Shown here: piece after piece, positions 27,023 through 31,931 of the stretch | Layout: each line of letters starts with the position of its first letter | How positions within the stretch are numbered: position 1 is the stretch's first letter | Assembly (NCBI GenBank): GCA_017886205.1 | Contig: JAFNEO010000009.1 | Span: forward strand, 71,747 to 135,746 | DNA length: 64,000 nucleotides | From: Candidatus Aminicenantes bacterium | GTDB lineage: Bacteria; Acidobacteriota; Aminicenantia; Aminicenantales; UBA8522 | Direction: 5' to 3' | The notes under the pieces: generated by a model | The model's input: only the letters and a program-made list of their open reading frames with translations | Database searches by the model: none | What the model was told of the DNA's origin: nothing | Position numbers and translations under genes: made by a program

Positions 27023-27970
27023 CTAGGCGGCCGTGATCCGCGTCCCCGACCGGTTGAGCAGGGCGGCCTTGAGATGGCTGGCCGAGGTGATCAGGACTTC
27101 TTTCCCGCCCGCCTGGATGTATCCGATGGCGGCCTCGATCTTCGGGCCCATCGACCCCCGCGGGAACTGGCCCTGGGCCAGGTATTCTTGCGCCTGCGCG
27201 ATGGTCATGGCTTCGATCGGCCTTTCTTGCGGCGTCCCGAAATCCAGGAAGACGCGTTCAATGCCGGTCAGGATGATGAAAAGGTCGACCTTGACCTCCC
27301 GGGCGATCAGGCTGGCCACGTAGTCCTTGTCGATGACGGCTTCGACTCCCTCGAAGAGGCCGCGGCCGCTGATGATGATCGGGATCCCTCCCCCGCCTGC
27401 GGCGATGACGATCCGGCCGGCGCAGACGAGGTCCCGGATGATCCACTTGGAAACGACGTCGATGGGCTTGGGGGACGGCACGACCTTCCGGTACCCCCGG
27501 CCGGCGTCCTCGACCATGGTCCATTTCTTTTCCTTGGCCAGCGCCTGGGCCCGGTATTTGGTGTAGAAGGGGCCCACCGGCTTGGTGGGGTTGAAGAAGG
27601 CCGGGTCCTCCCTGTCCACGACGACCTGGGTAACCAGGGTGGCCACTTCTTTGTCGATCGAACGGGTCCGGAGCTCATTGATGACCGCCTTCTCCAGCAT
27701 GAATCCCATGCTGCCTTCGGTCATGGCGTCGCAGACGTCGAGGCTGAATGGAGGAATCTTGGTGACGGCCTCCTCCATCTGAATGAGCAGGTTCCCGACC
27801 TGGGGCCCGTTGCCGTGGACGATGATGAGTTCGTAGCCTTTGCGGAGGATGTGGACCATCAGCCGGGCGGCGTGCTGGGCGTTTCGCATCTGCTCTTCCT
27901 GGAGTCCCCGTTCGTTCTCGGGGAGCAGGGCATTTCCGCCGAAGGCGATGAGGGCGATCTTCTGCTTCAT
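27023..27970 (-). CDS. arcC: Carbamate kinase
   Basis: AFGGNAL, HGNGPQVG, KPVGPFY, GGGGIP, EAVIDKD and GSMGPK motifs. Confidence 0.96.
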   Translation of the reverse strand: MKQKIALIAFGGNALLPENERGLQEEQMRNAQHAARLMVHILRKGYELIIVHGNGPQVGNLLIQMEEAVTKIPPFSLDVCDAMTEGSMGFMLEKAVINELRTRSIDKEVATLVTQVVVDREDPAFFNPTKPVGPFYTKYRAQALAKEKKWTMVEDAGRGYRKVVPSPKPIDVVSKWIIRDLVCAGRIVIAAGGGGIPIIISGRGLFEGVEAVIDKDYVASLIAREVKVDLFIILTGIERVFLDFGTPQERPIEAMTIAQAQEYLAQGQFPRGSMGPKIEAAIGYIQAGGKEVLITSASHLKAALLNRSGTRITAA

Positions 27971-29274
27971 CAGAACCCTTTGAGCACGTCCTTTAGGTTG
28001 GGCGAGCCGATCTCCTCGAGTTCGTAGCGGACGCGGAGCAGCTTCTTGTTGGTGGTGAGGACTCGGTTGAGGTCGATAGGGGTGGCGCTCACGACCAGGT
28101 CGCAGTCGATCCGGTCGATGGTCGCGGCCAGCTCACTGGTCTGCTTGTCGCCGTAGCCCATGGCGGGGAGGACCCTGTCCAGGTGGTTGTATTTCTCGAA
28201 TGTCTTCTTGATGCTCCCGACCGCAAAGGGACGCGGATCGATGATCTCGGCGGCGCCGTATTTCTGGGCGGCGACGATCCCGGCGCCGAACTTCATGCCG
28301 CCGTGGGTCAGGGTCGGGCCGTCCTCGATGACCAGGACACGCTTGCCCGCGATGGCCCCGCCGTCGTCGACTGTGATCTTGGAGTTGGCGCGGATGATCA
28401 CGGCCCCGGGGTTGAGGCTCTTGATATTCGCCATGACGATATCGACCTGGTCCTTCTGGGCTGTGTCCATCTTGTTGATGACGATGACCTTGGCCCGGCG
28501 GAAGTTGGTCTCGCCGGGATGGTAACGGAGTTCGTGGCCCGCCCGATGGGGGTCGGCGACGACGATCTCGAGGTTGGACCTGTAAAAAGAGAAGTCGTTG
28601 TTGCCGCCGTCCCAGAGGATGACGTCGGCTTCTTTCTCGGCCTGCCTCAGGATGGCCCCATAGTCGACGCCCGCATAGACGATGATCCCGTTGTCGATAT
28701 GGGGCTCGTACTCTTCGCGCTCCTCGATCGTGCACTCGTGCTTGTCCAGGTCGGAGTAGGCGGCGAAACGCTGAACCTTCTGCTTCACTAGGTCGCCGTA
28801 GGGCATGGGATGGCGGATGACGGCGACCCTCCGGCCCTTGGCCTTGAGGAGGAGGGCGACCTTGCGGCTGGTCTGGCTCTTGCCGGACCCCGTGCGCACG
28901 GCGCACACCGAGACCACGGGCTTCCGACTCTTGATCATGGTGTCGTCGGGGCCGAGGAGGACGAAGTTGGCTCCGGCAGCCATGACCTGGGAGGCCTTGT
29001 GCATCACATACTCGTGGGAGACGTCGCTGTAGGCGAAATGGACATCATCCACCTTGTGCTCGTTGATGAGTGAATTGAGGTCCGCCTCGGAGTGGATCGG
29101 GATGCCCTTGGGGTAAAGCTTCCCCGCGAGCTCGGCCGGGTACTTGCGGCCCTCGATGTCCGGGATCTGGGTGGCGGTGAAGGCGACGACCTTGTAGGCC
29201 GGGTTGTTGCGGAAGTAGACGTTGAAATTGTGGAAGTCCCTTCCGGCGGCGCCCATGATGATGACTTTCTTCAT
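27970..29274 (-). CDS. arcE: cDPGS-like P-loop protein, probable arginine synthetase (ArcE)
   Basis: GAAGRDFHNFN, AVRTGSGKSQ, RHPMPYG, EEREEYE, WDGGNND and EDGPT motifs; directly upstream of arcC and argF. Confidence 0.75.
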   Translation of the reverse strand: MKKVIIMGAAGRDFHNFNVYFRNNPAYKVVAFTATQIPDIEGRKYPAELAGKLYPKGIPIHSEADLNSLINEHKVDDVHFAYSDVSHEYVMHKASQVMAAGANFVLLGPDDTMIKSRKPVVSVCAVRTGSGKSQTSRKVALLLKAKGRRVAVIRHPMPYGDLVKQKVQRFAAYSDLDKHECTIEEREEYEPHIDNGIIVYAGVDYGAILRQAEKEADVILWDGGNNDFSFYRSNLEIVVADPHRAGHELRYHPGETNFRRAKVIVINKMDTAQKDQVDIVMANIKSLNPGAVIIRANSKITVDDGGAIAGKRVLVIEDGPTLTHGGMKFGAGIVAAQKYGAAEIIDPRPFAVGSIKKTFEKYNHLDRVLPAMGYGDKQTSELAATIDRIDCDLVVSATPIDLNRVLTTNKKLLRVRYELEEIGSPNLKDVLKGF

Positions 29275-29400: not shown

Positions 29401-30825
29401 TCAGCTCTTGTGGGCATTCAGCCCGTGCTGGAGCTTGCTGTGCTTGACGCTGTAGAGGAAGTAAATGAGCAGGCCGGCCAGGAGCCAGGCGCCGAACCGG
29501 AACCAGGTCACCTTGGGCAGGCTGTACATGAGGTAGAAACAGAAGCCGACCGTGATCAGCGGCGTGAAGGGCACTCCCGGCGTCTTGAACTTCCTCTCCA
29601 CCTCGGGCCGGGTCTTTCTCAGGACGATGACGCCGATGGAGACGAGGACGAAGGCGAACAGGGTGCCGATGTTGCAAAGGTCGATAATCATGGTCAGCGG
29701 GAAAAGGCCGGCGATCAGGGCGGTTACTGTCCCTGTTATCCAGGTGCAGATGTGAGGGGTTTTGTGGACGCGGTGGACCCGTGCGAAGGAGGCGGGGAGG
29801 AGGCCGTCCCTAGCCATGACCATGAAGATCCGGACCTGCCCATAGAGGGTGACGAGCAAGGTCGAGATCATCCCGATGACGGCGCCAGTGGCGACGAGGG
29901 CTCCTCCCCAGCGGATCCCGATCCTGGCGAGGGCGGCGGGGAGCGCGTTGCCGACGTCGATCTCCTTGAACGGGACCATGCCGGTCAGGACGAAGGCCAC
30001 CGAGATGTAGAGAATGATGATGACACCCAGGCAGATCATGAGGCCCAGGGGGACATCGCGCTTGGGATTTCGGGTCTCCTCTGCGGCCGTGGAGACGGCG
30101 TCGAACCCGATGTAGGCAAAAAAGATGATGGCTGCTCCGGCCATGATCCCCTTCCAGCCGAAGGGGGCGAAGGGGTTGAAATTGGTGAAATCGACGTGGG
30201 AGACGCCCAGGAAGACGAAGAGCAGGATCACGGCGATCTTGATGGCGACGATGATATTGTTGATCTTGGCGCTCTCCCGGATCCCGATGTAGAGGATCCA
30301 GCTTATGCCCATGGTGATAAGGATCGCGGGGAGGTCGACGACTCCGCCGGAAAAAATAACCTTGCCCGCGGCGGACGTAGTCACGGGCGGCGTGATCAGA
30401 GCCTTCGGCAGCTTGAGCCCCATTTGGGTGAGCAGTGGGATGAATGTGGTCGACCAGCCGGAGGCGACGGCGCTGGCCGCGACCAGGTATTCGAGCATCA
30501 AATCCCAGCCGATGATCCAGGCGACGAGCTCGCCGAAGGCCACATAGGAGTAGGAGTAAGTGCTTCCGGCGACCGGAAACATGCAGGCCAGCTCGGAGTA
30601 GGTGAGAGCGCAGAATGCGCAGGTGATCGCGGCGATGATGAAGGACATGAGGATGCCGGGCCCGGCCAGCTGGGACCCCTGGCCGGTGGCCACGAATATC
30701 CCGGTGCCGACGACCGATCCGATCCCGAGGGCGGCCAGGTCGACGGCCCTCAGGTTCTTTTTAAGCAGGGTGTGGTCGGACGCTTCGTTGATTTGCGCGG
30801 GTGTCTTGGTGACCCAAATGTTCAC
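29401..30825 (-). CDS. APC-family (cationic-type) amino acid permease
   Basis: GIGSVVGTGIF, YSELA, AGSTYSY, AYIGFDAV, EETRNPKR and ARDGLLP motifs; many TM helices. Confidence 0.92.
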   Translation of the reverse strand: MNIWVTKTPAQINEASDHTLLKKNLRAVDLAALGIGSVVGTGIFVATGQGSQLAGPGILMSFIIAAITCAFCALTYSELACMFPVAGSTYSYSYVAFGELVAWIIGWDLMLEYLVAASAVASGWSTTFIPLLTQMGLKLPKALITPPVTTSAAGKVIFSGGVVDLPAILITMGISWILYIGIRESAKINNIIVAIKIAVILLFVFLGVSHVDFTNFNPFAPFGWKGIMAGAAIIFFAYIGFDAVSTAAEETRNPKRDVPLGLMICLGVIIILYISVAFVLTGMVPFKEIDVGNALPAALARIGIRWGGALVATGAVIGMISTLLVTLYGQVRIFMVMARDGLLPASFARVHRVHKTPHICTWITGTVTALIAGLFPLTMIIDLCNIGTLFAFVLVSIGVIVLRKTRPEVERKFKTPGVPFTPLITVGFCFYLMYSLPKVTWFRFGAWLLAGLLIYFLYSVKHSKLQHGLNAHKS

Positions 30826-30921
30826 GGCGACCTCCGGAGAAGAGACTGAAAAAACTCATGGAAGAATGAGTTATGATAGTCAGATTCCCGGCCCTATGCA
30901 ATCAAAAAATAAGGGTCCGGG

Positions 30922-31074
30922 CTACTGACCTTCGGTCTGCTTCTTCCAGGCCTGGTCCTTCCGATCGTAGCCCTTCCCTCCCTTTTTCGTGGAGTGGGGC
31001 TTGCTGGGAGGAGGAAGCGGCCGCCGGACCTGCTTCCAGGCCGGTTTCTGGCGCCGGTTAACCTGATGAGGCAT
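30922..31074 (-). CDS. 50-aa basic small protein with an ArfA/ArfT-like motif (absent from the ORF track)
   Basis: Hand translation: MPHQVNRRQKPAWKQVRRPLPPPSKPHSTKKGGKGYDRKDQAWKKQTEGQ*. AGAAGGA lies just upstream of the ATG. Confidence 0.6.
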   Translation of the reverse strand: MPHQVNRRQKPAWKQVRRPLPPPSKPHSTKKGGKGYDRKDQAWKKQTEGQ

Positions 31075-31140
31075 CTGTCCTTCTTTTATTTTGCCATTAC
31101 GAGCACGAGCGAAGCAATCTCATCCTATCGTCTTTACCCG

Positions 31141-31191
31141 AAAAATTGGGGACGGTTCCATTTTCTGAAAAATTAGGACCGTCCCTTTTTT
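31141..31191. terminator. Hairpin flanked by A and T runs (terminator or REP) downstream of the phosphoesterase gene
   Basis: GGGACGGTTCC...GGACCGTCCC, with AAAAA before and TTTTTT after. Confidence 0.5.
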
Positions 31192-31209
31192 ATACACTGT
31201 CATCTGCGG

Positions 31210-31692
31210 TCAAAGGGCAACGATCTCCGCTTCGAGCTTATCCGAATCGAGCAGCGCCACCGTGCTTTTTCCGGTGAGCCAGCCGCCGGCCTCACCCGGG
31301 TTGAGGAGCAGGATTTTGCCTTCTTTCCGGATGTCCGGCTTATGAGTATGGCCGAAGATGATGACGTCGTATCTCCCCGACGAAGCGTAAGTCGCGACCG
31401 AGAAATGATAATGGACGAGGAGGATCTCGCGGCCGCCGTGGGCAAAGAGGAGCGGCGCGTCCTGAATCTCCCCGATTTTTTCCAGGGCCATTTCCAAACC
31501 TTGTTTTTCCCCGTCGCAGTTCCCGAAGACCGCTTTGACGGGGCAACCGAGAGCCGCCAGTTCCTTGGCGGCAAACGGCGCCACTACATCGCCCGCGTGA
31601 AGAACCAGTTCACACCCGGCATTCTTAAAAAGCGCCACCGCCTTGCGGATCTGTGGTACGTTGTCGTGCGAATCCGACATCACCCCGATCAT
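31210..31692 (-). CDS. YfcE-like metallophosphoesterase
   Basis: SDSHDN, HAGD, GNCD, GHTH and NPG motifs. Confidence 0.92.
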   Translation of the reverse strand: MIGVMSDSHDNVPQIRKAVALFKNAGCELVLHAGDVVAPFAAKELAALGCPVKAVFGNCDGEKQGLEMALEKIGEIQDAPLLFAHGGREILLVHYHFSVATYASSGRYDVIIFGHTHKPDIRKEGKILLLNPGEAGGWLTGKSTVALLDSDKLEAEIVAL

Positions 31693-31856: not shown

Positions 31857-31931
31857 AGGCGCGTGGCTCAGTGGTAGAGCGCTTCCTTGACGCGGAAGAG
31901 GCCGTGGGTTCGATTCCCTCCGCGCCTACCA
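31857..31931 (+). tRNA. tRNA-Val (GAC)
   Basis: Acceptor stem AGGCGCG/CGCGCCT, encoded ACCA end, anticodon arm CTTCC-TTGACGC-GGAAG, T-loop GTTCGATTC. Confidence 0.97.

Follow-up and report, generated by a model that had tools for sequence, protein, structure and literature searches.

The 64,000-nucleotide stretch analysed here (the window), from a Candidatus Aminicenantes bacterium, carries on its minus strand a small gene for a basic protein of 50 residues, of which 14 are lysine or arginine, three aspartate or glutamate and seven proline (Table 1). The initial annotation had picked out this ORF, and translation of the minus strand gives exactly the 50 amino acids that it quoted. The AGAAGGA that it took for a Shine-Dalgarno-like signal is found just ahead of the ATG, where relatives have similar purine-rich stretches, and the N-terminal half that it described as proline-rich is both basic and proline-rich over residues 1-25. 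A gene for a YfcE-family metallophosphoesterase (hereafter the phosphodiesterase) lies upstream of the small gene on the same strand, and genes for an amino-acid permease and a P-loop NTPase-like protein lie downstream of it.

Table 1. Coordinates of the small gene, its signals and its neighbours, with one further gene of the same genome. Positions are those of the window unless a contig is named.
Feature	Position	Strand	Basis or remarks
Small basic protein gene, 50 aa (MPHQVNRRQKPAWKQVRRPLPPPSKPHSTKKGGKGYDRKDQAWKKQTEGQ)	30922..31074	-	ORF list, orthologues and codon-position pattern
N-terminal module, residues 1-23 (MPHQVNRRQKPAWKQVRRPLPPP)	31006..31074	-	Invariant or almost so in Aminicenantia
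Core motif, residues 26-39 (PHSTKKGGKGYDRK)	30958..30999	-	Defines the wider family; sole ArfA-like stretch
Shine-Dalgarno-like AGAAGGA	31078..31084	-	3 nt 5' of the ATG
Hairpin around the stop codon and the two codons before it	30878..30930	-	Folding compared with shuffles
Terminator-like hairpin and AAUUUUU, 3' of the phosphodiesterase gene	31141..31185	-	-17.3 kcal/mol, z = -1.85, 13/200 shuffles equal
YfcE-family metallophosphoesterase, 160 aa	31210..31692	-	Upstream, same strand; Pfam Metallophos_2 9.5e-35; TIGR00040 yfcE 112 bits
Amino-acid permease gene	29401..30825	-	Between the small gene and the NTPase-like gene; permease domains found
P-loop NTPase-like protein, 434 aa, without a named family	27970..29274	-	Usual downstream neighbour in relatives
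tRNA-Val (GAC)	31857..31931	+	Between the phosphodiesterase gene and divergent thrS
RF-1-domain GGQ protein, 140 aa, K/R-rich tail	G000:C51, locus L110 1438..1860	+	ArfB size

The small gene ends in a hairpin of -25 kcal/mol (z = -4.58), and none of 200 shuffles folds equally well. The hairpin reported by the initial annotation, CCCGG-A-CCCT/AGGG-CCGGG, is its inner stem (CCCGG-A-CCCU / AGGG-CCGGG in the RNA), which begins immediately 3' of the UAG. The two final sense codons (GGUCAG) form an outer stem with CUGACU, and thus the hairpin has the extent given in Table 1 and encloses the stop codon. No U-tract follows it, a consensus promoter and terminator scan of 30700..31400 called neither, and Rfam gave no match on 30500..31500 at E <= 1. 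Similar stems were seen in none but the closest relatives (L003, L005, L006 and L010), so the hairpin is no feature of the family. Among 75 distinct loci, structure around the stop is mildly enriched (z < -2 in 11), and a stop codon terminates the ORF in all 75. With a stop codon in every orthologue examined and the hairpin limited to close relatives, the gene does not have the non-stop design of arfA.

The sequence of the hairpin loop and of the stretch next to it (UUAUUUUUUGAUUGCAU ... CUGACUAUCAUAACUCAUUCUUC; window 30860..30911, minus strand) is kept among close relatives that carry the permease gene, and was seen at the same place in L002, L003, L005, L006 and L010. The TTGCAT-17 nt-TATCAT found here could be a promoter of the permease gene.

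Conservation and distribution of the small gene

The ORF is a real, conserved, single-copy gene under purifying selection. A six-frame search of 41 related genomes recovered the protein in 24 of them at E <= 2e-15, and the part common to eight weaker matches was the N-terminal 20-25 residues. At 64 of 66 loci an ORF matches the N-terminal search pattern, with a length of 36-81 aa. For 28 distinct orthologues of the long form described below, the per-site mean pairwise difference is 0.23, 0.13 and 0.52 at codon positions 1, 2 and 3, and third positions are about four times as variable as second positions; from this codon pattern it follows that the frame is translated and under purifying selection.

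Conserved homologues, for which the initial annotation had proposed a search, are thus present. Across the class Aminicenantia a match at E <= 0.001 was obtained in 81 of 180 genomes (77 of the 166 of high quality), although this count may include misses, since only part of the first-look candidates was scored and short divergent genes are easily missed. Each of the 81 genomes has exactly one match, and the 49 genomes of five Aminicenantia families gave none. In a phylum-wide sample of 301 genomes there were eight matches, all inside Aminicenantia, and none in about 270 genomes of other classes.

Among RNA data, one metatranscriptome run contained 5% of the sampled words. A 151-nt contig of a relative from an RNA library (9 mismatches) covers 31010..31160, which takes in the 5' part of the ORF and the region upstream. 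As contigs in RNA libraries are no proof, this is at most a weak hint of transcription.

Two modules and a wider family

The N-terminal module has the consensus M-x-[HR]-x-x-[ND]-RRQKP-x-W...RRPLPPP in Aminicenantia. M1, R8, Q9, P11 and W13 are invariant in the alignment of that class, and R7, K10, R17, P19 and P21-23 are conserved at 90% or more. The module is present at 64 of 66 loci, including loci that are without the C-terminal motif. The core of the wider family reads R-x-x-W ... P-x-x-[KR]-P-H-S-T-K-K-G-K-K-G-Y-x-R-K, and the pattern H-[SGKT]-[TSV]-x-K-G-x-x-[GAD]-Y-x-R is present in 103 of 116 aligned family members. Among these 103, H, K+4, G+5, Y+9 and R+11 are invariant, S+1 is found in 99, T+2 in 96, G+8 in 100 and P-5 in 93, and a tryptophan stands nine residues ahead of the H in 61. 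The 116 members are 39-85 aa long, with a median net charge of +13.

Within Aminicenantia the C-terminal part comes in two kinds. In the long form, found in the family to which the window belongs, in certain sister families and also in a further order of the class, the sequence ...KPHSTKKG-x-KGY-x-RK-x-x-x-WKK[ED] is followed by a short tail, acidic or neutral, at the far C-terminus. Short forms end in tails such as FPKKGPSRKK or RKISPPSKPK. Because many orthologues have lost the ArfA-like core and kept the N-terminus, the N-terminal module may be the part that carries function in Aminicenantia. An AlphaFold2 model built with the 116-member alignment (pTM 0.19, mean pLDDT 70.5) is mostly coil, with a short helix at residues 12-16 and a C-terminal helix at 38-49; the small protein is predicted to be extended, without a globular fold.

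At short-form loci such as L063, L075, L079 and L080, the stop codon lies in the loop of a small hairpin of 4-6 bp, in which the last codons (AAG CCC ...) pair with the bases immediately 3' of the stop. With z about -2 this is a weak signal, and it comes from interrelated loci.

No Pfam or NCBIfam model covers the small protein of the window: the two collections gave no family, Pfam having no match at E <= 10. Searched with a profile at E <= 10, the chains of the PDB likewise gave no match, either to a solved ribosomal protein or to a factor. The string HSTKKG does not occur in any of the 8.4 million papers searched, and a protein atlas returned unnamed clusters only (score 0.91), with recognition below a useful level. 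When 1.84 billion representatives were searched with a profile, there were 28 matches at E <= 0.001, some of which have the HSTKKGKKGY stretch with different N-termini. A metagenome scan and a word-indexed search yielded 414 protein clusters at E <= 1, with lengths of 39-85 aa among those listed; no Pfam domain is recorded for any of them, and each is either unnamed or called 'hypothetical protein'. Some of the clusters come from metagenome-assembled genomes labelled Planctomycetota, Nitrospirota or Aminicenantaceae, labels that can mislead, several Aminicenantes loci being labelled Eubacteriales. By these searches the small protein founds an undescribed family that reaches beyond Aminicenantia, and the initial annotation, which took the protein to be undescribed, is borne out on that point. 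A 494-aa 'GTPase' (P0044) listed in the P0019 cluster reads as an unrelated, HflX-like GTPase and was treated as a listing artefact.

Genes around the small gene

The phosphodiesterase gene, whose product has intact metal-binding residues, is directly upstream of the small gene on the same strand at 56 of 64 Aminicenantia loci. The gap is often 10-20 nt, and at many short-form loci the phosphodiesterase stop codon lies about 13 nt ahead of the ATG of the small gene. In another order of the class the two genes are still paired, 6 nt apart and flanked by polA and a peptidase gene, and the other neighbours differ. The gap in the window is 135 nt and holds the weak terminator-like hairpin of Table 1, which as far as examined occurs in this genome only and was not called by the consensus scan. 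At six of the 64 loci (L047, L048, L066, L068, L087 and L094) the flank examined has no phosphodiesterase match, and thrS lies 239-518 nt upstream instead.

Downstream, the NTPase-like gene follows on the same strand within 700 nt at 39 of 64 loci, and a permease gene does so at seven; at 10 loci the downstream gene is thrS. The permease gene in the window looks like a recent insertion. The NTPase-like protein has no match in Pfam or NCBIfam above cut-off and no sequence match in the PDB; its Pfam matches, all below cut-off, are to P-loops of the CobW, CbiA and MinD types, and it appears similar to proteins that carry the annotation cyclic 2,3-diphosphoglycerate synthetase or 'GTPase'. Across Aminicenantia this protein is more conserved than ThrS (for example, 82% versus 73% identity in L058).

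In one relative (L015; G017:C7, 73..1635, minus strand) no stop codon ends the small ORF, which continues in frame through the amino-acid permease gene as an open frame of 521 aa. This frame could be a genuine fusion, the outcome of a lost stop or an assembly error.

At five family loci outside Aminicenantia (L139-L143) no phosphodiesterase gene is nearby and no neighbour is shared. Given such varied neighbours, the small genes appear to stand alone there. Behind the phosphodiesterase gene of four class families without hits (G141, G147, G148 and G152) no recognisable small homologue was found, and a fifth genome searched (G184) had no phosphodiesterase match. Together, the N-terminal module and the fixed place behind the phosphodiesterase gene suggest a lineage-specific extra contact or co-regulation.

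At L144 (G148:C44), where the small gene is absent, the phosphodiesterase gene is followed by a frame that reads like ribosomal protein L34 (KRTFQPN...).

Possible roles of the small protein

What might such a protein do? Its size, charge and sequence rigidity suggest that it lies along RNA. The most plausible target would be the ribosome, where the protein might sit in a small-subunit groove or channel, for instance the empty mRNA tunnel, the site of the similar KKGKGSYxRK stretch of ArfA. It would then act as a free-standing ribosome-associated accessory protein, either a plug or sensor of the tunnel or a lineage-specific ribosomal protein. We give RNA binding by the small protein, with the small ribosomal subunit as the most plausible target, a probability of about one half.

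The initial annotation had likened the protein to the ribosome-rescue factors ArfA and ArfT, and the part of this comparison that concerns the ArfA motif holds. E. coli ArfA (YhdL; NC_000913) has NKKGKGSYMRK at residues 32-42, in agreement with the motif that the annotation ascribed to it, and hhalign pairs this stretch with TKKGGKGYDRK. Without gaps, KKGGKGYDRK and KKGKGSYMRK are identical at 6 of 10 positions. The family HMM scores 6.5 bits on E. coli ArfA, a value reached by six of 2000 composition-preserving shuffles. KKGKGGYSRK of a deep-branching orthologue is identical to the ArfA motif at 8 of 10 positions, and this orthologue matches Pfam ArfA over HMM positions 26-42 of 44 (19.1 bits, E = 8.8e-4). 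The pattern KKG.?KG.?Y.RK, written post hoc, occurs once in the 63,355 open frames of at least 30 aa in the genome, and that occurrence is the small ORF. The proteins are alike in length (50 aa versus 52-55 aa for mature ArfA), in being basic and non-globular, and in the place of K-K-G-x-K-G-Y-x-R-K, which takes up residues 30-39 of 50 here and 33-42 in ArfA. By these comparisons KKGGKGYDRK resembles the mRNA-tunnel motif of ArfA beyond composition, at the level of the motif only.

Membership in the ArfA family did not stand. The hhalign probability against ArfA is 1.6-2.5%, a whole-genome scan with the ArfA model PF03889 did not find the small ORF, and BLASTP aligned the protein to no part of E. 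coli ArfA at E <= 100. Pfam ArfA, one of the few families matched at all, was hit in 2 of 22, 1 of 8, 0 of 7 and 3 of 116 members tested, never above its 25.5-bit cut-off, and among these 116 members, weak matches to MRP-S23 (in 4) and TP2 (in 3) arose at a similar rate. According to the available part of PMC5378476, residues 31-48 of ArfA lie in the mRNA tunnel, and a hydrophobic N-terminal region conserved among ArfA homologues binds RF2, with Leu19, Leu24 and Phe25 binding Trp319 of RF2. In the small protein the hydrophobic N-terminal region has no counterpart, the N-terminal half being basic and proline-rich, and the hhalign and HMM alignments cover only the motif. The small-protein family also has a near-invariant H-S-T ahead of the motif that is absent in ArfA. 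Moreover, ArfA is made from a truncated non-stop mRNA, whereas the small gene has retained a stop codon, and a hairpin within its frame is not conserved. Its host lineages are other ones, and it lies in an operon with a phosphodiesterase gene.

Francisella tularensis ArfT is likewise very small (40 aa) and basic with a KKG stretch near its C-terminus, and it too was once an unannotated ORF, as far as the published excerpts go. The ArfT motif had been given in the initial annotation as H-x-x-KKG-x-x-x-Y-x-RK; the portion of PMC6299226 available gives KKGGSTNKK, and by that published motif alone ArfT is without Y-x-RK. In what is available of PMC6514570, ArfT is assigned to a broad family characterised by a repeating charged helix; no match of that type arose here. 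On the alignments, the small protein is not a member of ArfA, and it is probably not a member of ArfT either.

One alternative is that the small protein is a constitutive ribosomal protein specific to its lineage, comparable to Thx or bS22. Small ribosomal proteins confined to particular lineages are well established, and the small gene is single-copy in every genome that carries it, its product is tiny, very basic, non-globular and highly conserved, and its neighbourhood also includes thrS and tRNA-Val. Thx (Pfam PF17070) has the same tiny size, strong basicity, single copy and restriction to a lineage, but in a genome scan PF17070 did not match the small ORF, its best matches lying elsewhere with E = 0.2. 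Detection in only 77 of 166 high-quality genomes speaks against a core ribosomal protein, since such a protein would be expected everywhere, and the spread across phyla looks patchy. Furthermore, other sequences freely take the place of the C-terminal half within a single order, and solved ribosomal proteins gave no match. We regard a constitutive ribosomal protein of this kind as unlikely. As a separate matter, nothing points to the small protein as a stand-in for a small ribosomal protein that the genome lacks: it has S21, and although it has no Thx, the Thx model does not match the small ORF either.

The rescue role proposed in the initial annotation would have KKGxKGYxRK probe the empty tunnel of a non-stop ribosome while the N-terminal half activates RF1 or RF2. 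The motif and its place in the protein resemble those of ArfA, the deep-branching orthologue comes closest of all to Pfam ArfA, and the genome encodes an RF2 with the SPF motif; in addition, the hairpin of the window encloses the stop codon. There is also precedent, ArfT and BrfA being rescue factors that arose independently in different lineages (available parts of PMC6299226 and PMC6881298). The points against such a role begin with the N-terminus, which offers nothing like the RF2-binding region of ArfA, and include the rarity and weakness of the Pfam ArfA matches, the H-S-T that ArfA does not have, the universal stop codon with a hairpin in close relatives alone, and the loss of the motif from many orthologues. 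The genome also has a tmRNA (C20:8944-9291, 184 bits) and a 140-aa GGQ protein that is likely an ArfB-type peptidyl-tRNA hydrolase. With tmRNA, RF2 and the GGQ protein a back-up rescue route is therefore already encoded, beside which the genome may have another. In principle, a positive peptide such as this one could fill a vacant mRNA tunnel as the tails of ArfB and SmpB do (PMC5378476, available part). Those tails, however, are helical and attached to a catalytic or tRNA-mimicking domain, which the small protein does not have, and the tails of ArfA, ArfB and SmpB are basic whereas the extreme C-terminus of the long form is acidic. Because only a ten-residue motif is common to the small protein and ArfA, ribosome binding is plausible and a rescue role unproven; we consider release-factor-recruiting rescue rather improbable.

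An alternative role away from the ribosome is opened by the tight operon with the phosphodiesterase gene. The small protein may be a subunit or regulator of the YfcE-type enzyme, possibly together with the P-loop NTPase, with RRQKPxW...RRPLPPP as a docking peptide. This would account for the close and frequent pairing, for its retention in another order where all other neighbours are different, for the conservation of the N-terminal module wherever the pairing is seen, and for an enzyme that has retained its metal-binding residues. Gene order by itself, however, is no proof of binding; the enzyme gene is absent near the five loci outside Aminicenantia, six of 64 loci have thrS upstream in its stead, and four other families of the class have the enzyme gene with no recognisable small gene behind it. 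A complex prediction for the two proteins, run without controls, scored 0.00 and counts neither way. A partnership with the phosphodiesterase is a doubtful prospect, although the fixed pairing is a rare functional lead for the poorly understood enzymes of the YfcE type. A regulatory leader peptide, at which ribosomes stall on PPP to control the downstream permease or NTPase gene, or the absence of any gene, is highly unlikely: stall-prone PPP is nearly invariant in Aminicenantia, a hairpin lies between the ORF and the permease gene and the two are in frame in one relative, but purifying selection extends over the whole peptide rather than one short motif, the downstream gene varies, the core motif persists between lineages as distant as phyla, in contexts unrelated to one another, and PPP is absent from most members outside Aminicenantia.

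Returning to the ribosome-binding reading, a bolder form of it would apply to the PHSTKKGKKGYxRK family as a whole. Its members may be free-standing peptides that bind the mRNA tunnel over several uncultured phyla, serving as rescue factors or as plugs of idle ribosomes, and coupled to the phosphodiesterase in Aminicenantia. This is a speculative extension to which we give a small chance; on its rescue branch the family would be a fourth independent release-factor-dependent type after ArfA, ArfT and BrfA. If tunnel binding is true, the known rescue or parking factors would extend well past Proteobacteria, Francisella and Bacillus, and a short, easily synthesised peptide would be at hand for structural work. 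Small proteins are routinely missed by gene callers and family databases, and here a small gene is conserved in a class of abundant uncultured sediment bacteria, with a core that recurs in hundreds of unnamed proteins elsewhere. Even if the link to the ribosome is wrong, the family merits a name and a model.

A minor observation concerns the N-terminal module outside the family. Two metagenomic proteins, P0025 (240 aa) and P0043 (238 aa), have an RQKPxW...RKPxPPP module fused to a 5-formyltetrahydrofolate cyclo-ligase domain (PF01812). They come from two separate AT-rich sequences and are without the HSTKKG core, which is too little to build on. P0043 was the one protein found when fused forms were looked for among longer proteins, and it resembles P0025.
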